Counted from the first letter of the stretch, positions 6,911 through 23,862 are shown. The stretch: 24,000 bases of DNA from an uncultured bacterium (GCA_949840775.1 CATKXO010000007.1:24744-48743), one strand, 5' to 3'. Notes: generated by a model not told the origin, from the sequence alone. Translations and numbers: made by a program.

Positions 6911-7170
6911 ACCTACATAATTAACGGCATTGTTAAAGTTAATAAAAAATTTAAAAAAATTAACTAAAACACTTGACGATTACCGTTTGGTAAGTTAATC
7001 ATATAAGCATGGAACATGAAATAACCGAAAGGCAACTCTTGACGGCTTCTGCCTGCTTTCCGCATCTCCACAATTTCTGCTTCTATTAGTTTCATATTTG
7101 TCCGTTTTTACTGGGGCGGTTCACATTTGGTAGGCCGGTGCCGGGTTTCGTTTTGCGCAAGGTAAAACCG

Positions 7171-7421: not shown

Positions 7422-10190
7422 TTACTCGATTTCGATGGCGGGAACCACCTTCGCGCATCGGGGGCAGAGGGTGGGATGCTTGGCATCCTGACCCACGGTG
7501 GGCAGCACCTTCCAGCACCGCTCGCACTTCTGGCCCTGGGCGGGCTCCACATCGGCCCGGAAGAGGCCCTTGACCTCGGTCTCCACCTGGGAGACGATGA
7601 GCAGGTCGGCCAGCTCCTCCTGGTCCATCTCGGCCAGGAAGGCGCACTCCTCCCGGATATTGAGCGTGACCTTGGCCTCCAGGCTCTTGCCGATCTTCTT
7701 CTCGGCCCGGGCGGTCTCCAGCTCGCCGTTGACCATGCTGCGAACGTCAATAATGGCGTCCCACCGGTCCATGGCGGCCTGGTCCAGGGCATAGATGGCA
7801 AAAGGGCTGTTCATCTCATTGAGCAGCACGTTCCGTCCGTCGTCGCTGTCCCGGTGGGGCATGGCCAGCCAGATCTCGTCGCAGGTGAAGGCCAGGATGG
7901 GGGCGAAGAGCTTGGTCATGGTGTCCAGGATGAGCCACAGGGCGGTCTGGGCGGAGCGGCGCTTCAAACCATCCTTCTCCTCGCAGTACAGCCTATCCTT
8001 GATGATGTCCAGATAGAAGGAGGACAGCTCCACCACGCAGAAGTCGTTGATGGCGTGGGAGACTACGTGGAACTCATAGTTGTCATAGGCGGCGAAGCAC
8101 TTCTCAATGAGCCCGTTCAGCTTGGTAATGGCCCAGCGGTCCAGCTCCACCATGTCGCTGGGGGCCACCAGATTGTTGGGATCGAAGCCGTCCAGGTTGC
8201 CCAGGCAGTACCGGGCGGTGTTGCGGAATTTCAGATAGTTCTGGGACAGCTGCTTGAAGATGGCGTCGGAGCAGCGCACATCCACGTGGTAATCGGCGGA
8301 GCCCGCCCACAGGCGGATCAGGTCCGCGCCGTACTTCTTAAAGATGTCGGCGGGGTCCACGCCGTTGCCCAGGGACTTGTGCATGGCCTTGCCCTCGCCG
8401 TCCACGGTCCAGCCGTGGGTGACGCACTCCTTAAAGGGAGCCCCCTTGCCCAGGGCGCCCACGGCGGTGAGCAGGGAGGACTGGAACCAACCGCGGTACT
8501 GGTCCAGGCCCTCCATATAGACGGTGGCGGGCCAGAAGCCCTGGTCGTTCTGCATGGAGGCGAAGTGGGTGGAGCCGGAGTCGAACCAGCCGTCCAGGGT
8601 GTCCTCCTCCTTGGTGAAGCCGCTCTTGGAGCCGCAGTGGGGGCAGGCGAAGTCCTTGGGCAGGATGTCCGCCGCCTCGGTCTCATACCAGGCGTTGGAG
8701 CCCTTCTCCCCGAAGAGGGCGGACACAGCGGCGATGGTCTCGTCGGTGCAGATGGGCTTGCCGCAGTCCGAGCAGTAGAACACGGGGATAGGCAGGCCCC
8801 ACCGGCGCTGCCGGGAGATGCACCAGTCGGCCCGCTCCTGGATCATGGACTTCATCCGGTCGATGCCCCAGCCGGGCACCCAGCGCACCTCCTCGCAGGC
8901 GGCCACGGCGGCGTCCTTGAAGGACTCCACCGAGCAGAACCACTGGGGGGTGGCCCGGAAGATGATGGGCTTTTTGCACCGCCAGCAGTGGGGGTAGGAG
9001 TGGACGATGTCCTCGGAGGCGAACAGGGCCCCGCTGGCCTTCATGTCGGCCAGGATGACGGGGTTGCTCTCGTCGGTGCCCATGCCGGCGTACTTGCCGG
9101 CGTAGTCGGTGTGGCGGCCCCGGTCGTCCACGGGCACCACCATCTCGATCTTGTACCGCTTGCAGGTCTCGTAGTCGTCCGCGCCGAAGCCGGGGGCGGT
9201 GTGGACGCAGCCGGTGCCGCTGTCCATGGTGACGTACTCGGCGGTGCAAAGCTGGCTGGTCTTGTCCAGGAAGGGGTGCTGGGCCAGCATATACTCAAAG
9301 TCAGAACCGGTGAAGGTGGCGACGGTCTCATAATTCTCGATGCCGCCCACCTTCATCACCTTGTCCCGGAGGGCCTCGGCCAGGATATACATCTCACCGT
9401 TGTCCGCCTTCACCAGCACGTAGCTGTCCCGGGGGTGGAGGGCGATGGCCAGGTTGCCGGGCAGGGTCCAAATGGTGGTGGTCCAGATGAGGAAGTACAT
9501 CTTGGACACGTCGCCGTACTGCCCCAGCTTGCCCAGGTCGTCCTTCACCTGGAACTTCACGTAGACGGTGGTGACCGGGTCGTCCTGGTATTCGATCTCC
9601 GCCTCGGCCAGGGCGGTCTCGTCGTGGGGGCACCAGTACACCGGCTTCAGGCCCTTGTAGATATAGCCGTTCTTGTACATGGCCCCGAAAATCTTCACCT
9701 CCTCGGCCTCGAAGCCGGGGGACATGGTGAGGTAGGGGTTCTCCCAGTCGCCGATGACCCCCATCCGCTTAAAGCCGTCCCGCTGCACGTCCACATAGTG
9801 CTGGGCGAACTCGTGGCAGGCGGTGCGGAACTCGGGGACGGACATGGCCTTGCGGTTGAGCTTGTTCTGCTTGATGATGGCGCTCTCAATGGGCATGCCG
9901 TGGTTGTCCCAGCCGGGGATGTAGGGGGTGAGATAGCCCCGCATGGCGGCGGTGCGGGTCATAAAGTCCTTGATGGACTTGTTCAGGGCGTGGCCCATGT
10001 GGAGCGCGCCGTTGGAGAAGGGAGGGCCGTCGTGGAGGGAGTACAGGGGCTTGCCCTCGTTCTTTTTCAGCAGCTCGTGGTAGAGGTCCATGTCCTCCCA
10101 GCGCTTGAGCATGTCGGGCTCCCGGGCGGGCAGCCCCGCCCGCATGGGAAAGTCGGTTTTCGGCAGGTTAATCGTCTTGTTGTAGTCCAT
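7422..10190 (-). CDS. ileS: Isoleucine--tRNA ligase
   Basis: 922 aa. N-terminus MDYNKTINLPKTDFPMRAGLP. HMGHALN (HIGH motif), KMHKSLGN (KMSKS motif), and a C-terminal zinc finger CERCW...CPRC. Confidence 0.97.
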   Translation of the reverse strand: MDYNKTINLPKTDFPMRAGLPAREPDMLKRWEDMDLYHELLKKNEGKPLYSLHDGPPFSNGALHMGHALNKSIKDFMTRTAAMRGYLTPYIPGWDNHGMPIESAIIKQNKLNRKAMSVPEFRTACHEFAQHYVDVQRDGFKRMGVIGDWENPYLTMSPGFEAEEVKIFGAMYKNGYIYKGLKPVYWCPHDETALAEAEIEYQDDPVTTVYVKFQVKDDLGKLGQYGDVSKMYFLIWTTTIWTLPGNLAIALHPRDSYVLVKADNGEMYILAEALRDKVMKVGGIENYETVATFTGSDFEYMLAQHPFLDKTSQLCTAEYVTMDSGTGCVHTAPGFGADDYETCKRYKIEMVVPVDDRGRHTDYAGKYAGMGTDESNPVILADMKASGALFASEDIVHSYPHCWRCKKPIIFRATPQWFCSVESFKDAAVAACEEVRWVPGWGIDRMKSMIQERADWCISRQRRWGLPIPVFYCSDCGKPICTDETIAAVSALFGEKGSNAWYETEAADILPKDFACPHCGSKSGFTKEEDTLDGWFDSGSTHFASMQNDQGFWPATVYMEGLDQYRGWFQSSLLTAVGALGKGAPFKECVTHGWTVDGEGKAMHKSLGNGVDPADIFKKYGADLIRLWAGSADYHVDVRCSDAIFKQLSQNYLKFRNTARYCLGNLDGFDPNNLVAPSDMVELDRWAITKLNGLIEKCFAAYDNYEFHVVSHAINDFCVVELSSFYLDIIKDRLYCEEKDGLKRRSAQTALWLILDTMTKLFAPILAFTCDEIWLAMPHRDSDDGRNVLLNEMNSPFAIYALDQAAMDRWDAIIDVRSMVNGELETARAEKKIGKSLEAKVTLNIREECAFLAEMDQEELADLLIVSQVETEVKGLFRADVEPAQGQKCERCWKVLPTVGQDAKHPTLCPRCAKVVPAIEIE

Positions 10191-10720: not shown

Positions 10721-10958
10721 CAAAAACGCCCCCGTCCCATAAAGAGACAAAGGCGTAAACCTCTGCGGTACCACTCTTCTTGCCGGGGCATAAATCCTCG
10801 GCCGCTCAAAAGCTGCCCGGTAACGGGGGCGTCCGGAGGGGCCTACTGCGATTCAGCCCTCAGCTCCAAGGTGATCTTCGCCGCTCCCTCCCGTCCGCCT
10901 TTCACCAAACGGCGGCTCTCTTTGCGTCTTGGGGGCGGGTACTCGTCCTTTTCCGCGC
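10721..10958 (-). promoter_or_regulatory. T-box riboswitch leader with an Ile (AUC) specifier
   Basis: - strand elements: stem I base AAGG/CCUU; specifier loop ACGAGUA // CGAAG-AUC-A (AUC at 10875-10873); AGAGAG; distal loop GGUGAAA; second stem with AGUA; T-box AGAGUGGUACCGCAG. The antiterminator is AAGAG/CUCUU plus GCAGAGG/CCUUUGU with a UGGUACC bulge. The terminator is ACGCCUUUGUCUC-UUUAU-GGGACGGGGGCGU followed by UUUUU. Confidence 0.85.
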
Positions 10959-10978
10959 ATTTTGCATGTGTGTTTCGT

Positions 10979-12398: not shown

Positions 12399-12572
12399 GG
12401 AAAATTTCCTCCATTAAAGGGCAGGGGCCGCATTTCTGCGGCCCCTTTCATAAGGTCAGCGCTTTGGCAGGCGTACCAGGCTCCTGCGTCTCTCGGGTTT
12501 CCCCTGTCCATGCCATCGGCGTGTGGTCGGTACGAAATCTACCACCTCAAAGCGCCAGCTTATCCTACTCTC

Positions 12573-12601
12573 AGTATAGCCGTATTATTCAGATTTGTAA
12601 A
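12573..12601 (-). promoter_or_regulatory. Candidate promoter driving a ~165-nt leader ahead of lspA
   Basis: TTTACA (12601-12596), 17-nt spacer, TATACT (12578-12573). The -35 lies in the last codons of the PBECR-like ORF. Confidence 0.5.
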
Positions 12602-12962
12602 GAATTTTTTTGTTGTGCAGCAGGCGGTTCCATTCCTTTTCCCGAATTTTCATAAAAGTAATCACAGAATTTTTATAGTTTGGATTATCTGACGGCGTGA
12701 CCAGGCGAAGGGCCAGCCGAAAATGCTCATTTTGCTCCGACACCTTTTTCAAAACGACTGCCGTATTGGGACGGGCATCGGCAATGATGTAATCGGGGTT
12801 CAATATAATTTCAGGAATGTAAGCGCAAAATTTCTCATAATCCTTTGGGTGATGTAATTTTATGTGTTCAATCCGTTCCTCTGTGATGATAACTTCTCTG
12901 GTCTGGATGTCCATTGAAACACATTGATAAATACCAAATTCCAAATCGCACAGTTTAATCAT
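12585..12962 (-). CDS. Hypothetical 125-aa protein, PBECR-like (Barnase/EndoU/ColicinE5-D/RelE-like nuclease fold) by motif recollection
   Basis: About 33% GC (hand count, 12781-12840). ITEERIEHIKLHHPKDYEKFCAYIPEIILNPDYII...FRLALRL resembles the H-I-K-x-K/H-HP-x-DY ... PDY pattern I associate with PBECR-family proteins of Firmicutes mobile elements; this is unverified. The RBS GAGGAA overlaps the stop codon of the upstream loader gene, with a 12-nt gap. Confidence 0.5.
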   Translation of the reverse strand: MIKLCDLEFGIYQCVSMDIQTREVIITEERIEHIKLHHPKDYEKFCAYIPEIILNPDYIIADARPNTAVVLKKVSEQNEHFRLALRLVTPSDNPNYKNSVITFMKIREKEWNRLLHNKKILYKSE

Positions 12963-15482: not shown

Positions 15483-17570
15483 ATGATGGAGCTGCTTGCC
15501 CCCGCCGGGTCCATGGAGGCGGTGACCGCCGCCGTCCAGAACGGGGCCGGCGCCGTCTATTTTGGATATGGAGATTTCAACGCCCGCCGCGGAGCCCGGA
15601 ACTTCACCCGGGAAGAGGCCGCGGCGGCGGTTTCTTACTGCCATCTCCGGGGGTGCAGGGTGAACCTCACCCTGAACACCCTCCTCACCGACCGGGAGCT
15701 GCCCGCCGCCGCCGAGCTGGCCGCCCACGCCTGCGATATCGGGGTGGACGCGGTTATCGTCCAGGACCTGGGGGTGGTCCGGATGCTCCGCCAGTCGGTC
15801 CCCGACCTGCCCATCCACGGCTCCACCCAGATGACCGTCCACTCCCTGGACGGGGTGAAGCTGTGCGCCGACCTGGGGATGAGCCGGGTGGTGCTGGGCC
15901 GGGAGCTGAGCCGGGACCAGATCGCGTACATCTGCAAGGAGTCCCCCATCGAGATTGAGGTCTTCGGCCACGGGGCCCTGTGCATGTGCTGGTCGGGGCA
16001 GTGCTTTTTCTCCTCCGTCATCGGGGGCCGCAGCGGCAACCGGGGGATGTGCGCCCAGCCCTGCCGCCTGAACTACGGCTGGGGCAGCAAGGCCGGCGAG
16101 TACCCCCTCTCCCTGAAGGACCTGTCCCTGGCCGGGCACCTGAAAGAATTGCAGGACATGGGGGTGGCCTGCCTCAAGTTGGAGGGGAGGATGAAGCGGC
16201 CCGAGTACGTGGCCATCGTCACCGGCATCTACGCCAGAGCCCTGAAGGAGGGCCGTGAGCCCACCGCTGAGGAAGTTGATATTTTAAAGCAGGTCTTTTC
16301 CCGCCAGGGCTTTACCGATGGGTATTTTATGGACCGGAAGGGTCCGGACATGTTCGGCACCCGCCAGGAGGAGAAGGAGCCCCGGGAGCTCTACGCCCAG
16401 GCCCGGGCTACCTATGAGAATAACGCGGAGAACCGGAAGGAGCCGGTGCGGATGTACGCCCTCATCCAGGCTGGCCAGCCCGCCCAGGCGGCGGCGGAGG
16501 ACCGGGAGGGCCGGGTGGTCCGGGTGGAGGGTCAGGTACCCGAGGCGGCCCGGAACGTCCCCCTCACCCGGGACAAGGTGGAGCTCCAGCTCTCCCGCAC
16601 CGGGGGCACCCCCTTCCAGTGCGAAAAGGCCACCGCCAAAGTGGAGGAGGGCCTGGCCCTCCCCCTGTCCGCCCTCAACGATCTGCGGCGGCGGGTGCTG
16701 GAGGAGCTGGTGAAGGAGCGGCAGAAGCCCCCCCAGCGCCGCAAGGGCAAATACCAGCCCGGCGTCCGCTATGAGAATCAGGAGGAGCCCCCGGTGTTCA
16801 CCGTGTCCCTGCGGACCGCCTCCCAGCTTAGCGCCGAGCTGTTGAAGTTAAAGCCCGCCCTGATTTACCTCCCGGCGAACGAGGGCGCCGCCCATCCGGA
16901 GGCGGTGAAGCGGTGTATGCAGGCGGGGGTGCCTGTGGCCGCTTCCCTGCCCCGCATCTGCACCGACAGGGAGCTGCCCCAGCTGGAGCGGGACCTGATC
17001 GCCCTGGGGGAGCTGGGCGTGGAGGAGGCCCTGGCCGGCACCTGGGGAATGGTCCGCCGGGCCATGCAGCTAGGCTTTTCCGTCCGGGGGGACTACGGCC
17101 TGGGGGTGTACAACAGCCAGACCATGAAGGAGCTGAAACGGCTGGGCCTCGTCGGGGCCACCGTGTCCTTTGAGATGAAGTTCCCCCAAATTCGGGACCT
17201 GTCCAAAACAATCCCCGCCGAGTTTATCGCCTACGGCCGCCTGCCCCTGATGATTACCGAGAACTGCATCATTTACAACCACTGCGGCCGCCATACCTGC
17301 GGCAATGTGAACCTGCTCACCGACCGGAAGGGGGAGCGCTTCCCCGTGGTCAAGGCCTGGGGCTGCCGGAATGAGATTCTCAACTCCAAAAAGGTGTTCC
17401 TGGCGGACAAGCAGGCCGACTGGCAGCGCCTGGGCCTGTGGGGGGCCCGGCTGATGTTCACCACCGAAAACGCTTTGGAGTGCGCCCAGGTGCTGGAGCG
17501 GTACTTAAACAGGGGCAAGTACCAGCCCAACGACTTTACACGGGGGCTGTACTACCGGGATGTGGAGTAA
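15483..17570 (+). CDS. Peptidase U32 family protein (collagenase-like)
   Basis: MELLAPAGS...AVYFG...FNARR N-terminus and U32 signature EVFGHGALCMCWSGQC. ATG 15483 is preferred (GGGAGG 8 nt upstream) over the ORF-track TTG 15477. Confidence 0.85.
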   Translation: MMELLAPAGSMEAVTAAVQNGAGAVYFGYGDFNARRGARNFTREEAAAAVSYCHLRGCRVNLTLNTLLTDRELPAAAELAAHACDIGVDAVIVQDLGVVRMLRQSVPDLPIHGSTQMTVHSLDGVKLCADLGMSRVVLGRELSRDQIAYICKESPIEIEVFGHGALCMCWSGQCFFSSVIGGRSGNRGMCAQPCRLNYGWGSKAGEYPLSLKDLSLAGHLKELQDMGVACLKLEGRMKRPEYVAIVTGIYARALKEGREPTAEEVDILKQVFSRQGFTDGYFMDRKGPDMFGTRQEEKEPRELYAQARATYENNAENRKEPVRMYALIQAGQPAQAAAEDREGRVVRVEGQVPEAARNVPLTRDKVELQLSRTGGTPFQCEKATAKVEEGLALPLSALNDLRRRVLEELVKERQKPPQRRKGKYQPGVRYENQEEPPVFTVSLRTASQLSAELLKLKPALIYLPANEGAAHPEAVKRCMQAGVPVAASLPRICTDRELPQLERDLIALGELGVEEALAGTWGMVRRAMQLGFSVRGDYGLGVYNSQTMKELKRLGLVGATVSFEMKFPQIRDLSKTIPAEFIAYGRLPLMITENCIIYNHCGRHTCGNVNLLTDRKGERFPVVKAWGCRNEILNSKKVFLADKQADWQRLGLWGARLMFTTENALECAQVLERYLNRGKYQPNDFTRGLYYRDVE

Positions 17571-17581
17571 TATAAGGCCAT

Positions 17582-17717
17582 AAGGCCCCCTTCGCAAAGG
17601 GGGCTGTCAGCGAAGCTGACTGGGGGTTTTCTCCTCATGAAAACAGATGCGTTTTGATATGAGAAAACCCTCCATCATTTGCTCCGCAAATGCCACCTCC
17701 CTTTGCGAAGGGAGGCT
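17582..17717 (+). repeat. Copy A of a ~135-nt structured TIR repeat
   Basis: Left end aaggcccccttcgcaaagggggctgtcagcgaagctgactgggggttttctc. Right end gagaaaaccctcc...ccacctccctttgcgaagggaggct. Begins 11 nt after the U32 stop codon. Confidence 0.85.
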
Positions 17718-17742
17718 GTTCTGCGGGGAAAGGAGACGCTCC

Positions 17743-18867
17743 ATGCTCAGCCGCCAAAAACTCTTCTGGCTCAGCCGGGCGTACGGCCTGCCCGGCTCTG
17801 ACGCCCGCTTTCTCCGGGCCGTCCGGGACAACTGCGCCTATCATATAAAGCACTGCCCCGAATACCGGCTGATCTGCCGGGCGGAGGGCTTTTCTCCCGA
17901 CTGTCTGGAGACGATAGACGACCTGGCCAGGCTCCCCGTCCTGCCCACCCTGTTCTTCAAGCGGCACCACGTCTCCTCCATGCCGGAGTGGAGAATGGCC
18001 ATGAAGGTGACCTCCTCGGGCACCAGCGGCAGCTTCAGCCGGGTGGGGTTCGACTGGGGCTGCGTCTTCGCGGAGATTCCCATGGTGCTCCGGCTGGGCT
18101 TTTACCACAGGCTGGTCTCCCCTGTCCCCGCCCGCTATGTAATCCTGGGCTACAAGCCGGGAAAGCAGGACAAAATGGGGGTGGCCCGGACCATGTTCGG
18201 CGTGACCCACTTCGCCCCGCCGGTGGGCCGGTTTTACGCTTTGAAGTGGAAGGACGGGGCCTATGTCCCCGACCTGGACGGGGCGGTGAGAACCCTGTCC
18301 CGGTGGGGCCGGTTTCCCCTGCCGGTGCGCATTGTGGCCTTCCCCTCCTATCTGTGGTTTGGGATGGAGCGGATGGAGGAGCTGGGCCTGTCGGTATGCC
18401 TGCCCAGGGGCTCTAAAATCCTCCTGGCCGGGGGCTGGAAGCAGCACTACGCCCAGGAGGTGGACAAACCCCGCCTCTACGCCCTGGCCCGGAAGGTGCT
18501 GGGGGTGGAGGAGGAGCACATCCACGAGTTCTTCGGGGCGGTGGAACACCCCGTCTTCTTCAACACCTGCAAAAAACACCACTTTCACATCCCGGCCTAT
18601 GCCCGGGTCATCATCCGGGATGTGCGCACCTTAAAGCCCCTGCCCATGGGAGAGGTGGGGCTGGTGAATCTCATCACCCCCCTCATCAACGCCACCCCGG
18701 TGACCAGCGTCATGACCGACGATCTGGGCTGTCTCACCCCCGGAGAGGACTGCGGCTGCGGGCTGAGCTCCCCCTACCTCACCATCCTGGGCCGGGCGGG
18801 GCTGAACGACATCACCACCTGCGCGGCGGGGGCCGCGGAGCTACTGGGAAAGGGGGAGGCATTTTGA
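17743..18867 (+). CDS. LuxE-like acyl-protein synthetase (adenylate-forming enzyme)
   Basis: 374 aa from ATG 17743 (RBS AAAGGAG). The ORF-track start 17647 lies inside repeat copy A. The N-terminus FLRAVRDNCAYHIKHCPEYRLI...LPVLPTLFFKRH and the TSSGTSGSFSRVGFD adenylation motif resemble LuxE-family proteins (recollection, unverified). Confidence 0.6.
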   Translation: MLSRQKLFWLSRAYGLPGSDARFLRAVRDNCAYHIKHCPEYRLICRAEGFSPDCLETIDDLARLPVLPTLFFKRHHVSSMPEWRMAMKVTSSGTSGSFSRVGFDWGCVFAEIPMVLRLGFYHRLVSPVPARYVILGYKPGKQDKMGVARTMFGVTHFAPPVGRFYALKWKDGAYVPDLDGAVRTLSRWGRFPLPVRIVAFPSYLWFGMERMEELGLSVCLPRGSKILLAGGWKQHYAQEVDKPRLYALARKVLGVEEEHIHEFFGAVEHPVFFNTCKKHHFHIPAYARVIIRDVRTLKPLPMGEVGLVNLITPLINATPVTSVMTDDLGCLTPGEDCGCGLSSPYLTILGRAGLNDITTCAAGAAELLGKGEAF

Positions 18868-20126
18868 TTTTTGCCGGCGGAAAGATTCTCCCCGACTCAG
18901 AGCGGAGCGCCGTTCTGGGCCGCCTGGAGGAGGACATCTCCCAGACCCTCGGCGGCCCGCCCCTGGCGGCGGAGACCGTCCTGGACGCCCTGGAGACCCT
19001 GGCCGCGGAGCTGGACAGCGGCGCGCTGGACGGCCTCATCGCCCGATACGCCCCGCCGGGAGCCCGGGAGGAGCTGGACCGGGTCCGCCCCCAGATCAGC
19101 CGGAAAACCCTGGAGGACCGGCTGAGCCTAGAGCTGGGGGGCCTGGGCGGCCCCCGGCCCTTCGGCCGGGCGGAGGTCCGCCCCCTGGGGGTACTCCTCC
19201 ACATCGCGCCGGGGAATATGGCGGGCCTGCCCGCCTTCACCGCCGTGGAGGGCCTGCTCACCGGCAACCTCAACCTGGTCAAGCTGCCCCACGGGGATAA
19301 GGGCCTCACGTTGGCGGTGTTCCAAAAGCTGACGGAGCTGGAGCCCCGGCTGGCCCCCTGGCTATACGCCTTTGATGTCCCCTCCAGGGACACCGCGTCC
19401 CTGAAACGTCTGGCCGCTCTGGCCGGCGGTATCGTCACCTGGGGCGGGGACGGGGCGATTACGGCCATGCGGAAGCTGGCCCCGCCCGGCTGCAAGCTGA
19501 TCGAATGGGGCCACCGGCTCAGCTTTGCCTACCTGTCCGATTGGGCGGGGCTGGACCTGTCCCCCCTGGCCCGCCACATCCTCCGCACCGGCGGGCTGCT
19601 GTGCTCCTCCTGCCAGGTGATTTACCTTGATACGGAGTATCTGGCCGTCGGGGAAAAATTCTGCAAGGACTTTTTGCCCGTGTTGGAGCGGGCCGCCGCA
19701 TCCCGCTATCAGGCCCCCGGACAGGCGGCTCAGGGGGCCCTCTACACCCGGGAAGCGCTCCTGGAGCAGATTGTGGACCGGGCGGCCTCCGACGACCTGG
19801 TCTTTGCCGGCCGGTGCTGCTCCCTGGTGCTGCGGCGGGACATGGAGCTGGAGCTGTCCCACCTCCACGGCAATGTGCTGGTGAAGCGCCTGCCCCGCAA
19901 GGACCTCCTGCCCGTTCTGGGGCGGCAGCGGGGGCGGCTCCAGACGGCGGGCCTCCTCTGCCCCGAACGGTTGCGGGAGGAGCTGGCCGCCCTGCTGGCC
20001 CGGGCGGGTGTCAACCGGATCACCGCCCCCGGCCGCATGTCGGACGCGTTCCTCCAGGAGGCCCACGACGGGGAGTACCCCCTGCGCCGGTATGTGCGGG
20101 TTGTGGACGTGGAAAATAATTTTTGA
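18864..20126 (+). CDS. LuxC-like acyl-CoA reductase (aldehyde-forming)
   Basis: 420 aa. The TTG start overlaps the upstream TGA (TTGA), with the RBS GGGGGAGG upstream. LHIAPGNMAGLPAFTAVEGLLTGNLNLVKLP and the candidate catalytic GLLCSSCQVIY resemble the LuxC family (unverified). Confidence 0.6.
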   Translation: MIFAGGKILPDSERSAVLGRLEEDISQTLGGPPLAAETVLDALETLAAELDSGALDGLIARYAPPGAREELDRVRPQISRKTLEDRLSLELGGLGGPRPFGRAEVRPLGVLLHIAPGNMAGLPAFTAVEGLLTGNLNLVKLPHGDKGLTLAVFQKLTELEPRLAPWLYAFDVPSRDTASLKRLAALAGGIVTWGGDGAITAMRKLAPPGCKLIEWGHRLSFAYLSDWAGLDLSPLARHILRTGGLLCSSCQVIYLDTEYLAVGEKFCKDFLPVLERAAASRYQAPGQAAQGALYTREALLEQIVDRAASDDLVFAGRCCSLVLRRDMELELSHLHGNVLVKRLPRKDLLPVLGRQRGRLQTAGLLCPERLREELAALLARAGVNRITAPGRMSDAFLQEAHDGEYPLRRYVRVVDVENNF

Positions 20127-20138
20127 GGAGTTTACAAT

Positions 20139-20588
20139 ATGGACTTGAAAATCAAGGCAGTTTCCCCTAAAATCGGAAAGGAAATCCCCCTGCCCTTCTA
20201 CGCCACCCCCGGCTCGGCGGCCATGGACCTCCACGCCTGCCTGGACGAAGCGGTGACCATCCCTGCCGGCGGACGGCGGCCCATCCCCACCGGCATCGCC
20301 ATCGCCCTGCCCTCGGCGGACTATGTGGCCCTGGTCTACGCCCGCAGCGGGCTGGCTGTCAAGCTCGGCGTGGCCCCCGCCAACTGCGTGGGGGTGATCG
20401 ACAGCGATTACAGGGGTGAAATACTGGTGGGCCTTCAAAACTCCGGGGAATCGGATTTCACCGTCCGGCCCGGCGACCGCATCGCCCAGCTGATGATTAC
20501 CCCGGTGGTCCGGGCCAGCCTCCAGATGGTGGACGAGCTGGACGGCACCGCCCGGGGCGCGGGGGGATTCGGGTCCACGGGAACTTAA
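20139..20588 (+). CDS. dut: dUTP diphosphatase
   Basis: 149 aa with GSAAMDL, ARSGLA, GVIDSDYRGE and RGAGGFGSTG, the canonical trimeric dUTPase motifs. Confidence 0.93.
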   Translation: MDLKIKAVSPKIGKEIPLPFYATPGSAAMDLHACLDEAVTIPAGGRRPIPTGIAIALPSADYVALVYARSGLAVKLGVAPANCVGVIDSDYRGEILVGLQNSGESDFTVRPGDRIAQLMITPVVRASLQMVDELDGTARGAGGFGSTGT

Positions 20589-20720
20589 AAGGCCCCCTTC
20601 GCAAAGGGGGCTGTCAGCGGAGCTGACTGGGGGTTTTCTCAGCGAAAGCCGCTGGTGTGAAGATAGAAAACCCTCCGTCATCCGCTTCGTGGATGCCACC
20701 TCCCTTTGCGAAGGGAGGCT
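20589..20720 (+). repeat. Copy B of the ~135-nt structured TIR repeat
   Basis: Starts at the base immediately after the dut stop codon. The first 52 nt differ from copy A at one position. The central and penultimate hairpins differ in sequence but stay paired. Confidence 0.85.
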
Positions 20721-20739
20721 TTAGAGGAGGTACAACCAT

Positions 20740-21591
20740 ATGTTCGGTTTATTCAAGAGCAAGGGAGAAAAGCCCGAGGAGCAGGCGCGGAAACAGCCCT
20801 CTGAGACTCCCGTGAACAAGCAGTTCAAAGAGCTGGCCGCCCAGTTTCTGCCCGAGGAGCTGACCATCCTGGCCGTCACCGGGGCCAACGGCTTTGGCGG
20901 GGGCAAGACCAGGGGCGAAACGCTGTGGACGGCCAGCATCGGCCTCACCGCCTGGATGGAGGAGGACAGCCCCGACATCCACCGGGGGAAATTTGTCCTG
21001 TCCACCATCGCGGACGACAGGCTGCTGGGCGTTCTCCGCCAGCGGGCCCGGTCGGACTTCATCATCAAGTTCCGGGGCCGGGTGTCGGAAAACGGCCAGC
21101 GCCTGCTGCTGCTGGACCTGCCCGAGCCGGCCTTCGACCCCGACCTGAAGGCCATTCTGGAGGAAGAAAAAAAGCCGGTCACCTTCCAGGAGGAGGGGCT
21201 GGGCGCCTTTACCCTCAACCGCCAGGTGGACTGGTTTGAGACCACGGTGGACTGGCTTGGGACGGAGATTTCCCTGGTCTTCGACGCGGAGGAAGACCGG
21301 GCGGGCTGCATCCAAAACGCCAAAGCGGTGCTGGCTGCCGCCGGGGACTGGGACCGGCGGGTGCGGGAGTACGCCGCCGGTGAGCTGCTGTCTTCCGCCA
21401 ACGACTGGGCGGAGGATGAGGAGATCACCAGGGAGCAGTTTATGGAGCGGATGGAGCTGGAATCCATCGAGGTCCGGGCGGACGGCGGATTCGACTTCTG
21501 GTTTGGAGACGGCGACCTGTTCTACGGCCACTCCATCCACGTCTCCGGAGATATGGAAAACGGCCCGGACGACGCAGAGATGGAGGGTTAA
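20740..21591 (+). CDS. Hypothetical protein (283 aa), possibly DUF2262/DUF6985-like C-terminal domain
   Basis: High-GC ORF with RBS AGAGGAGG. The C-terminal W..DW...ITREQFMERMELESIEVRADGGFDFWFGDGDLFYGHSIHVSG resembles a DUF family I cannot name with certainty. Confidence 0.65.
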   Translation: MFGLFKSKGEKPEEQARKQPSETPVNKQFKELAAQFLPEELTILAVTGANGFGGGKTRGETLWTASIGLTAWMEEDSPDIHRGKFVLSTIADDRLLGVLRQRARSDFIIKFRGRVSENGQRLLLLDLPEPAFDPDLKAILEEEKKPVTFQEEGLGAFTLNRQVDWFETTVDWLGTEISLVFDAEEDRAGCIQNAKAVLAAAGDWDRRVREYAAGELLSSANDWAEDEEITREQFMERMELESIEVRADGGFDFWFGDGDLFYGHSIHVSGDMENGPDDAEMEG

Positions 21592-21836
21592 TCCCCCAGG
21601 GCCTCCAGCATCAGACCGGCGCCGGTGAGAAAACCGGAGCGGAAGTATTGATAATTTTGCAGCACATCCTCATCCGCTTTCAGGTCAAACAGATGGTTCA
21701 CAAAGTCGATACCGAATACTGCTTGAACCTTTTCCATTTCAGCGGATATTTGACTGCATAATTTCTGTTGCTTTTTACTCCGTTCCGGGGTAATATCGTA
21801 ATCGCCGCTGAATAATTGATACAGGATATCTTCCAT
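21588..21836 (-). CDS. Hypothetical small protein (82 aa), divergent partner of an XRE regulator
   Basis: RBS GGAGGG lies 6 nt before ATG 21836, with a consensus promoter upstream. About 37-45% GC (hand count). Its stop overlaps the stop of the convergent 283-aa gene (TTAA). Confidence 0.55.
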   Translation of the reverse strand: MEDILYQLFSGDYDITPERSKKQQKLCSQISAEMEKVQAVFGIDFVNHLFDLKADEDVLQNYQYFRSGFLTGAGLMLEALGD

Positions 21837-21852
21837 TTTATTCCCTCCGATC

Positions 21853-21901
21853 CCTCAGTAAAGCTGAGGTTTATTATACTCAGTTTTACTGAGCTTGTCA
21901 A
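21853..21901 (-). promoter_or_regulatory. Consensus promoter with two palindromic operator-like sites in the divergent XRE/82-aa intergenic region
   Basis: - strand: TTGACA (21901-21896), 17-nt spacer, TATAAT (21878-21873). The palindromes ctcag-tttta-ctgag (21879-21893, inside the spacer) and cctcag-taaag-ctgagg (21853-21869, downstream of the -10) match 14/15 as reverse complements. Their centres are 25 bp apart. Confidence 0.65.
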
Positions 21902-21912
21902 GGGGTGTTTCT

Positions 21913-22161
21913 ATGTTTTCTAAAGAACTCTTCGGACAACGTGTCCTGGAACAACGGAAAAAACATGGAGAGACCCAAAAGGAGCTGGCGCATGTTGTGG
22001 GTGTTGGAGATACACAGATCATCGGTATTGAGCATGGACGCAATACAACTACCGCCGAGCGCATCGCCCTGATCTGCGAGCACTACCATGTCTCCGCCGA
22101 CTATCTCCTGGGACTGACCGACGACCCGGAGCCGAAGTATCAAGCGGAGGCGGAAGGATAA
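21913..22161 (+). CDS. XRE-family helix-turn-helix transcriptional regulator (82 aa)
   Basis: LFGQRVLEQRKKHGETQKELAHVVGVGDTQIIGIEHGRNTTTAERIALICEHYHVSADYLLGLTDD is a Cro/C1 HTH. ATG 21913 (RBS AAGGGG) is preferred over the ORF-track TTG 21895. Confidence 0.8.
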   Translation: MFSKELFGQRVLEQRKKHGETQKELAHVVGVGDTQIIGIEHGRNTTTAERIALICEHYHVSADYLLGLTDDPEPKYQAEAEG

Positions 22162-22165
22162 GGAA

Positions 22166-22299
22166 AAGGCCCCCTTCGCAAAGGGGGCTGTCAGCGAAGC
22201 TGACTGGGGGTTTTCTCAACAAAAGCCGTTGCCGTGAAGAGAGAAAACCCTCCACCGCCGCCTTCGGCGGCGGTCCCCCTCCCTTTGCGAAGGGAGGCT
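22166..22299 (+). repeat. Copy C of the ~135-nt structured TIR repeat
   Basis: Starts 4 nt after the XRE stop codon. The first 52 nt are identical to copy A. The penultimate hairpin is accgccgcc-ttc-ggcggcggt. Confidence 0.85.
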
Positions 22300-22342
22300 T
22301 TTCCCTGCGGGGGACGAGAGAGCACGTTAACGAGGTGTTTCT

Positions 22343-22951
22343 ATGAAAATCATCCTGGCCTCCCAATCACCCCGGCGGCGGGAGCTGCTGGAGCGGATGG
22401 GGATTACGGATTTTAAAATCATCCCGGCCCGGGAGGAGGAGGTGGCCACCCGCACCCTCACCCCCGACCAGCTGGTGGAGGAGCTGTCCCGGCGCAAGTG
22501 CGCCGAGGTGGCGGCCGCCCATCCGGAGGCCTTGGTGATTGCCGCCGACACCATGGTGGCCATCAACAACCGGGTGCTGGGCAAGCCCCGCACCGAGGAG
22601 GACGCGGCCCGGATGCTGGCCGCCCTGTCAGGCCGGCTGCACGTTGTATACACCGGCGTGACGGTGTCCCAGGGGGGAAAGACGCTGACCCAGCACGAGA
22701 TGACCTCCGTCCGCTTCCGCACCCTGACCCAGGCGGATATCATCCGCTACATCGCCACTGGCGAGCCCATGGACAAGGCGGGGGCCTACGGCATCCAGGG
22801 CTACGGCTCGGTGCTGGTGGAGGGCATTTCGGGAGATTACTACAATGTGATGGGCCTGCCGGTGTGCCGGCTGGCCCGGATGCTGGCCCGGTTCGGGGTG
22901 GACCCCCTGGCCCTGGCCGTTGAGAAGACCCAGAAGGAGCAAGAGACGTGA
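22343..22951 (+). CDS. maf: Maf-like nucleoside triphosphate pyrophosphatase / septum formation protein
   Basis: MKIILASQSPRRRELLERMGI, ADTMV and DKAGAYGIQG are Maf family signatures. Confidence 0.9.
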   Translation: MKIILASQSPRRRELLERMGITDFKIIPAREEEVATRTLTPDQLVEELSRRKCAEVAAAHPEALVIAADTMVAINNRVLGKPRTEEDAARMLAALSGRLHVVYTGVTVSQGGKTLTQHEMTSVRFRTLTQADIIRYIATGEPMDKAGAYGIQGYGSVLVEGISGDYYNVMGLPVCRLARMLARFGVDPLALAVEKTQKEQET

Positions 22952-23794: not shown

Positions 23795-23862
23795 TGTGGG
23801 GCCCGCCCCCCTGGGCGGGCCATAAATTGAGAAATGCCCCGCCCAGGGGGGCGGGGCCCACA
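23795..23862. repeat. Pair of inverted GC-rich hairpins (REP/BIME-like) between mreC and mreD
   Basis: ggcccgccc-ccct-gggcgggcc and gccccgccc-aggg-gggcggggc are separated by ataaattgagaaat. The two 27-nt arms are about 25/27 reverse-complementary. Neither is followed by a U-tract. Confidence 0.7.

Follow-up and report, generated by a model that had tools for sequence, protein, structure and literature searches.

Hairpin-built mosaic repeats of Oscillospiraceae, probably non-autonomous mobile elements of the MITE/REPIN/BOX kind

The described systems closest to the repeat reported here are REP (repetitive extragenic palindromic) sequences of Proteobacteria, with their bacterial interspersed mosaic elements (BIMEs) and REP doublets forming hairpins (REPINs), whose REP-associated tyrosine transposase (RAYT) is a Y1 HUH transposase; the pneumococcal SPRITE and BOX elements, with AAAA/TTTT ends, modularity, enrichment at gene 3′ ends and no duplication found (PMC3049150); and transposable elements of the miniature inverted-repeat kind (MITEs), including Correia, which has a TA duplication, and Chunjie, with direct repeats of 9 bp (PMC3184786, PMC10969869). 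Three copies (A, B and C) of a repeat of about 135 nt lie on the + strand of the window, the whole 24,000-nt stretch of uncultured bacterial DNA analysed (GCA_949840775.1 CATKXO010000007.1:24744–48743). They are best read, with a probability of about 0.8, as members of a palindromic repeat of Oscillospiraceae that is dispersed, non-coding, non-autonomous and mosaic, of the MITE/REPIN/BOX type, its hairpins being probably kept by selection on mobilisation. Empty sites, dispersal beside housekeeping genes, both orientations, decay and collapse of copies, reshuffling and the lack of an RNA-family match together point to a selfish non-autonomous repeat. The family is apparently undescribed; it adds one more case to a well-known type of selfish repeat in bacteria rather than a novel regulatory RNA.

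Copies A, B and C are 136, 132 and 134 nt long. Their positions, five hairpins, inverted ends and distances from the upstream stop codons are as an earlier, sequence-only reading of the window had described, and Pfam upholds the neighbouring genes it named. The copies and associated features are:

17582–17717, + strand: copy A, 11 nt past the U32 peptidase stop codon (17568–17570); covariance-model score 146.7 bits
17585–17604, 17606–17620, 17676–17692, 17696–17715: hairpins H1, H2, H4 and H5 of copy A
17622–17633 with 17661–17673: long stem of copy A; inner hairpin at 17640–17655
17573–17588, + strand: the 8-mer ATAAGGCC present twice in tandem at copy A's 5′ edge, as read from the sequence
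17718–17742, + strand: further inserted DNA on the 3′ side of copy A, lacking at the empty sites of relatives L121–L123
20589–20720, + strand: copy B, 0 nt past the dut stop codon (20586–20588); score 155.8 bits
20592–20611, 20613–20627, 20679–20695 (one G.T pair), 20699–20718: H1, H2, H4 and H5 of copy B
20629–20640 with 20664–20676: long stem of copy B
22166–22299, + strand: copy C, 4 nt past the stop codon of the XRE (HTH_3) gene (22159–22161); score 157 bits
22169–22188, 22190–22204, 22254–22274, 22278–22297: H1, H2, H4 and H5 of copy C
22206–22217 with 22241–22253: long stem of copy C
22300–22342, + strand: further inserted DNA on the 3′ side of copy C, lacking in L121 but with a homologous flank in L123

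The first 52 nt, previously called nearly identical, differ at one base among the copies, and every hairpin claimed for copy A is present. H1 and H5 are about 80–83% reverse-complementary (ends of ~22–29 nt; 22 terminal pairs conserved), and the window has 9 occurrences of a 20-nt end motif, compared with 0.03 expected by shuffling. No plausible open reading frame (orf) covers the copies, the lengths of which differ by non-multiples of 3; a protein-coding reading was discarded, as lengths of 136/132/134 nt and variable centres are incompatible with a frame and the orfs present are spurious and overlapping. The flanking genes, by Pfam, are U32, LuxE, LuxC, dUTPase, DUF7021/DUF2262, DUF6809 (− strand), HTH_3, Maf and MreC, and the copies sit in a tightly packed operon upstream of maf, mreC, mreD and genes for a PBP2-like transpeptidase and a MinD/ParA-like ATPase.

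Comparison with three relatives (L121, L122 and L123; 86–88% U32 identity to the window) shows that the copies occupy sites that are empty elsewhere. Gene order is kept in all three (ZapA-U32-LuxE-LuxC-dut-DUF7021-...-Maf-MreC), L122 being without DUF6809 and XRE. The junctions are:

U32/LuxE (site A): window 172 nt; L121 4 nt; L122 5 nt; L123 11 nt
dut/DUF7021 (site B): window 151 nt; L121 13 nt; L122 12 nt; L123 a 27-nt solo hairpin
XRE/Maf (site C): window 181 nt; L121 genes overlap (GTGA); L122 XRE absent
Site C in L123: a 184-nt element of the long subfamily, in opposite orientation between the same flanks

Site A is therefore empty in L121, L122 and L123, site B in L121 and L122, and site C in L121. 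Since the same operon has abutting or overlapping genes in these relatives, the copies represent inserted DNA, gained or lost; A, B and C are insertions in a conserved operon, not cassette borders. Among the roles suggested by the sequence-only reading, that of a mobile non-autonomous element fits best, with empty orthologous sites in three relatives. LuxE and Maf are translationally coupled to the upstream gene at empty sites. In the window, the inserts at sites A and C run past H5 with an outer module and a purine-rich tail that provides a new Shine-Dalgarno sequence: 3′ of copy A, what remains of the optional outer hairpin module (TCTGCGGGGA; 17720–17729) is followed by AAGGAG (17730–17735), serving LuxE (ATG at 17743), and 3′ of copy C the outer hairpin module TCCCTGCGGGGGAC (22302–22315), which recurs at other copies (e.g. 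L039, L044, L101 and L126), is followed by GAGGTG (22332–22337), serving Maf (ATG at 22343). An outer module of the form CTGCGGGG(G)AC flanks many family members. Strain L112 shows copy A with three ATAAGGCC units, half of H2 deleted and the H5 loop mutated, which amounts to decay without obvious constraint.

With a covariance model derived from copies A, B and C, 61 distinct full-length copies were identified at 80–157 bits (107–145 nt, median 136; G+C content about 58–61%), plus a longer subfamily of ~180 bp; these bear out the earlier proposal of a single structured, MITE-like family with terminal inverted repeats. Copies were found in Flintibacter muris, Colidextribacter sp. OB.20, Oscillospiraceae metagenome-assembled genomes (MAGs) from mouse and rabbit gut, metagenome contigs and Lawsonibacter-like genomes, while U32 homologues put the window's host near Lawsonibacter, Pseudoflavonifractor and Colidextribacter. 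A degenerate 20-nt end pattern (one genome per species) matched F. muris, Colidextribacter sp. OB.20, several of the mouse and rabbit gut Oscillospiraceae MAGs and many Geomonas loci, the full-length Oscillospiraceae relatives among these scoring 80–128 bits. An exact 24-nt 3′-end pattern gave 47 more loci in metagenomes, of which 25 are contigs of sample ERZ779633 at 7.5–12.4x coverage, the sample and coverage of the window-operon contig, so that the window's own genome probably holds at least 28 copies. Contigs L118, L120, L127, L139, L148, L167 and L169 end inside a copy, indicating that the family fragments short-read assemblies.

Rfam 15 gave no match at gathering score at the elements of the window or its relatives; the best sub-threshold matches, plant microRNA models at 15–29 bits under permissive thresholds, were judged to be chance. 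A viral-contig scan for the 5′ arm gave no match, BLAST searches of phages and plasmids returned partial arm matches only (Vescimonas, sphingomonads and two gut phage contigs), and literature searches yielded no description of MITE, REP or REPIN elements in Clostridia or Oscillospiraceae.

The family consensus is (A)AAAGG-H1-H2-TGGGGGTTTTCTC-centre-GAGAAAACCCTCC-H4-H5-CTTT(T), a mirror-symmetric hairpin string bounded by an A-run and a T-run, in which the long stem (G5T4CTC ... GAGA4C3TCC) encloses a variable centre; some copies are flanked, at one end or at both, by a further outer hairpin (CCCTGCGGGGGAC). The fold of each copy beats its shuffles on both strands (z −7.0 to −8.7). Double compensatory changes, examined in 22 and then 61 members, affect 6/6 pairs of H2, 5/7 of H4 and 4/13 of the long stem, and the observed covariation score was reached by 0/500 shuffles, with slid-partner controls far lower; the stem changes are thus compensatory, as originally claimed from three copies. 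The minimum-free-energy fold joins H1 and H5 into one long terminal helix, but double changes are absent from this helix, which also requires two G.T pairs in each copy. Watson-Crick pairing is kept at 477/488 (H1) and 486/488 (H5) positions of the local hairpins, about 98–100%, with variation concentrated in the 4-nt loops, and in divergent subfamilies there are compensatory changes in the H1 and H5 stems and the loops are non-complementary. Family variation therefore favours local H1 and H5 hairpins, and the five-hairpin picture, over the minimum-free-energy helix.

H2 alleles are reverse complements of H4 alleles (e.g. GGCATTTGCGAAGCAAATGAC matches GTCATTTGCTTCGCAAATGCC), making the element a long imperfect palindrome of hairpin modules. 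A C-GNA-G triloop of the GCGAAGC type, an exceptionally stable DNA mini-hairpin motif, occurs in the 5′-half hairpin on either strand. About 22 H2 and 29 H4 variants, grouped in a few major alleles, give 49 H2/H4 combinations across the 61 copies; copies have exchanged hairpin modules. The window copies all carry the rarer H2 allele (TGTCAGC..GCTGAC), each has its own H4 allele, all three of these being widely shared, and the centres are of two types, so differences among the copies are mainly due to module reassortment, and compensatory evolution in situ is not the main cause of covariation at the three window loci. At a finer scale, H4 shows stepwise paths in single copies, from CATCCGC/GCGGATG to CATCCGC/GTGGATG (copy B) to CATCCAC/GTGGATG (L073), and from CATTTGC/GCAAATG to CATTTAC/GTAAATG; these changes, of the GC to GT to AT kind, indicate that hairpin integrity is really maintained. 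In the sequence-only reading, an identical 5′ part and a covarying interior were taken as a sign of selection on the fold; most of this pattern reflects reassortment of a small number of hairpin alleles, which are also present in many other copies.

Copies are dispersed and lie close to genes. A Pfam census of 150 neighbouring orfs revealed housekeeping genes, with no recurrent family and no recurrent transposase. Adjacency to stop codons, seen at first in three copies, is family-wide: among 53 copies facing a gene 3′ end, 43 have a stop codon ≤25 nt from the element end (median 8 nt), and the junction often reads TAA|AAAGGCC or GGCTTT|TTA. No 2–10-nt target-site duplication was found in 22 copies at offsets of −8 to +8, the only matches lying inside the element. 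The filled versus empty comparison, an approach suggested with the original description, yielded empty sites in related species, but no target-site duplication and no empty site within the species (ten contigs). No RAYT gene was seen in the neighbour census (8-kb blocks around matches), and no two arms with a gap the size of a gene between them were found in the small blocks around matches. Most solo arms are contig ends, 5′-truncated copies or single hairpins such as AAAAGGCCCCCTCCCTTTGCGAAGGGAGGCTTTT, the last of which look like collapsed copies.

Two further arrangements were noted. A module CCGAYTCCCCCTRTCAGGGGGARATGGCCGAAGGCCA.AGGGGG is nested in H1 or abuts copies in L010 (5791–5973), L069 (1350–1486), L104 (~2100–2175) and L158 (~7070–7100), indicating that small repeats insert into one another, like pneumococcal repeats. 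In rabbit-gut MAGs, a 3′ half, a ~35–40-nt spacer and a 5′ half lie in series (L081 ~700–860; L082 ~6950–7130; L069 1350–1560), a tandem or permuted half-copy arrangement that recalls BIME clusters.

The absence of duplications, the hairpin-shaped ends and the GNA triloops of GCGAAGC type, present in the 5′ half whichever strand is read, suggest mobilisation through single-stranded DNA. We infer that the hairpins are kept by mobilisation, as folded single-stranded DNA handled by a HUH-type enzyme: they would persist because mobilisation needs them, with selection acting on the element and not on the host, and the folded strand would probably be recognised by a trans-acting REP/RAYT or IS200/IS605-type (HUH) enzyme.

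Several points weigh against an interpretation as a mobile repeat. No transposase or autonomous parent was found in the small blocks around matches, the single-stranded DNA step is a proposal drawn from the features just listed, and no fresh transposition event was seen within the species, ten contigs of which all keep the three copies. The choice between gain and loss at each site is based on parsimony from three relatives only. Gene neighbours of 63 copies come from a crude orf picker based on G+C content at third codon positions (GC3), alignments were fitted to the structure of the covariance model, and metagenome copies were recruited by exact H5 match, inflating apparent H5 conservation. 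Strong hairpin conservation and tight stop-codon adjacency would also fit a role of the RNA at host level.

Look-alikes in other phyla raise a wider, tentative and on balance doubtful reading, in which the Oscillospiraceae element would be one branch of a cross-phylum superfamily of hairpin modules, mobilised by an unrecognised single-stranded DNA transposition system with GCGAAGC-type mini-hairpins as putative DNA-level recognition signals. A high-copy family of Geomonas and other Geobacteraceae, ACGT-CCCCCCTTTGCGAAGGGGGG-ACA-GGGGGGATTTGC ... GCAAATCCCCCC-CGT-CCCCCCTTCGCAAAGGGGGG, has the same terminal hairpin stem (CCCCCCTT-NGCN-AAGGGGGG) and the same long stem of a G-run and AT part (G6ATTTGC), with loops swapped, no H2 or H4 and a centre of about 30 nt to about 790 nt. 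An intergenic element of ~100 nt on sphingomonad and Methylobacterium plasmids, present at several sites per plasmid, has similar hairpin grammar and a 36-nt string (CCTCCACCACCGCCTTCGGCGGCGGTCCCCCTCCC) identical to Oscillospiraceae copies, and aligns end to end with the model at 22.5 bits. If these resemblances reflect common descent, they would imply an uncharacterised mobilisation system of broad host range. Loci of the Geobacteraceae repeat were listed among L001–L110 (Geomonas, Citrifermentans and Geomesophilobacter; e.g. L016 2605–2774) and gave no Rfam match; in L065 (2728–3600) the centre of about 790 nt contains a small orf and another repeat. The sphingomonad-type element was located at 1709–1784 and 2454–2555 of L125 (Sphingobium indicum pSRL2). 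Chunjie was rejected as the identity of the Geomonas look-alikes, being AT-rich with 9-bp direct repeats (PMC3184786).

That the family is instead a mobile bidirectional intrinsic terminator, comparable to SPRITE (PMC3049150), with an A-run, a GC-rich hairpin and a T-run at both ends, is unlikely. The ends of the consensus (AAAAGG-hairpin ... hairpin-GGCTTT(T)) have the expected layout, a terminator scan selects H5 of copy C (+ strand) and H1 of copies B and C (− strand), solo forms such as AAAAGGCCCCCTCCCTTTGCGAAGGGAGGCTTTT resemble ordinary terminators, and convergent sites outnumber divergent ones by 14 to 3 (binomial p=0.013). However, 28/45 classified copies lie between co-directional genes, the window copies are inside an operon whose maf, mreC, mreD, PBP2-like and MinD/ParA-like genes must still be expressed, and several copies are directly downstream of a canonical terminator. 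The T run is 3–4 nt, compared with 5–6 T in canonical terminators of the same genomes. The statement in the sequence-only reading that no U-tract follows the copies holds for copy A, which ends in CTGTTCTG without a T run, but the family consensus ends in a short T run (GGAGGCTTT, often with one more T), giving 3–4 U, and TTTT comes after copy C, the only one of the three to pass the + strand scan.

Quite unlikely is a structured RNA selected by the host, i.e. a stabiliser in the 3′ untranslated region or between cistrons, or an RNase processing site, resembling REP/BIME or enterobacterial repetitive intergenic consensus (ERIC) sequences. The very stable folds, the fact that H2, H4 and some long-stem pairs have changed in a truly compensatory way, the GC to GT to AT paths in single copies, the proximity of stop codons and the sense orientation of all three window copies relative to the operon are each compatible with such a role. 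Against this, the common strand noted at first is true of the window and not a rule of the family: copies between co-directional genes are sense in 14 cases and antisense in 14, which argues against an orientation-specific RNA function, and the family-wide scan with the covariance model thus shows covariation and a stop-codon bias, but no orientation bias. Close relatives lack the elements at orthologous junctions of the same operon, half of H2 is lost from copy A in L112, another strain of the same species, and copies behind canonical terminators would not be transcribed with the gene; nor does Rfam recognise them. A comparison of G.T with A.C mismatches between strands, meant to reveal selection on the RNA, left too few informative cells.

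For a mobile repeat kept up by its own mobilisation, effects at the RNA level (partial termination at the T run, 3′-end protection, and lost coupling offset by an imported Shine-Dalgarno sequence) are likely by-products. A co-transcribed element would fold into a multi-hairpin RNA within the operon and may attenuate read-through or protect the upstream 3′ end, and at sites A and C the imported ribosome-binding site would keep the downstream gene translatable. Finally, although three structured, imperfect palindromes in the same orientation directly after stop codons delimit two gene blocks, attC-like recombination sites bounding luxE/luxC/dut and DUF7021/DUF6809/XRE cassettes are highly improbable and this reading was rejected: L121–L123 keep the operon order without the elements (L121 and L123 with the same genes lack A and B), which makes the bracketing coincidental and counts against the recombination-site role offered earlier, copies elsewhere lie singly and in both orientations beside unrelated housekeeping genes, and the sequence has no GTTRRRY/RYYYAAC core.

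Other features of the window and its relatives were recorded. Between mreC and mreD, a second palindromic repeat (23795–23862) forms a REPIN-like inverted doublet, GTGGGGCCCGCCCCCCTGGGCGGGCC ... GCCCCGCCCAGGGGGGCGGGGCCCAC. The mreD/PBP2-like and PBP2-like/MinD-like gaps are occupied by related (T)GTAGGGGCGG...CCGCCCCTAC(A) units with a REP-style GTAG; L111 has doublets, L112 singlets, and L122, with gaps of 12–25 nt, none. A 110-nt LuxE-LuxC spacer in L121 (13218–13327) does not belong to this repeat family, and LuxE and LuxC overlap in the window. The remaining features are:

12459–12555, − strand: skipping-rope RNA (RF02924, 42.4 bits), downstream of a 125-aa PBECR2/PBECR3-domain gene (12585–12962, − strand)
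10740–10964, − strand: T-box leader (RF00230, 118.7 bits), upstream of a 922-aa orf (7422–10190, − strand), an isoleucyl-tRNA synthetase by Pfam matches on the L113 orthologue
21588–22161: DUF6809 (− strand) and HTH_3/XRE (+ strand) pair with low GC3
21901–21873, − strand: DUF6809 promoter with a perfect 12/12 sigma-70 consensus (TTGACA-17-TATAAT)

The skipping-rope RNA and PBECR2/PBECR3 gene lie between lspA and a DnaC/IstB-like gene; this gap is 16 nt in L122, so that the RNA and the nuclease-like gene appear to have been inserted together, as a single module. The DUF6809/XRE pair, missing from L122, similarly appears to be a small accessory module inside the operon.

The elements provide a well-defined interspersed repeat family for the Oscillospiraceae, abundant gut commensals, with no description found in Rfam or the literature searched, and are possible markers for strain typing, as in REP-PCR or BOX-PCR. 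Insertions within an essential operon (U32-luxEC-dut-maf-mreCD with PBP2-like and MinD/ParA-like genes) necessarily change translational coupling, and transcripts could be attenuated or stabilised. Covariation of the kind seen in RNA, arising here in selfish DNA, is also a warning for the discovery of non-coding RNAs by covariation.

Among known systems, the element shares with REP, BIME and REPIN sequences GC-rich imperfect palindromes in extragenic positions, mostly behind genes, mosaic or clustered arrangements, co-transcription with operons and the absence of target-site duplication, and, as in REPINs, two inverted units can form local hairpins or one long hairpin. It is not a strict REP, as it lacks the conserved GTAG and instead has ends of the form (A)AAGG-CCCCC... 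and ...GGGAGG-CTTT; its arm is about 55 nt, with two different hairpins and half of the long stem, compared with a single REP of ~20–35 nt, and it differs further in its Firmicute host and in the tens, not hundreds, of copies seen so far.

In common with MITEs such as Correia/NEMIS, ERIC and Chunjie (PMC3184786, PMC10969869), it has a length of 100–200 bp, inverted repeats of about 22 nt at its ends, copies dispersed between genes, filled and empty sites, operon insertion without destruction and stable RNA folds. It is not a classical MITE, since the defining target-site duplication is absent, and it is also not AT-rich, has hairpins as ends and yielded no parent insertion sequence with matching ends in the blocks around matches. 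Palindrome-associated transposable elements (PATEs) derived from IS200/IS605 likewise have subterminal hairpins and no target-site duplication, and recognition of single-stranded DNA hairpins is plausible for both; however, PATEs are asymmetric and insert 3′ of a fixed tetra- or pentanucleotide, whereas the element is mirror-symmetric and found in a loose A-rich, stop-adjacent context.

BOX and SPRITE elements resemble it in Firmicute host and strong predicted RNA folds, BOX also in modular build, and SPRITE in AAAA/TTTT-type ends, lack of detectable duplication, position at gene 3′ ends and enrichment between convergent genes; both are AT-rich and without sequence similarity to the element, which is GC-rich, with five-hairpin mirror symmetry and a short T run. 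In architecture the family is therefore closest to REPINs and BIMEs, and in distribution and ends to pneumococcal SPRITE and BOX.

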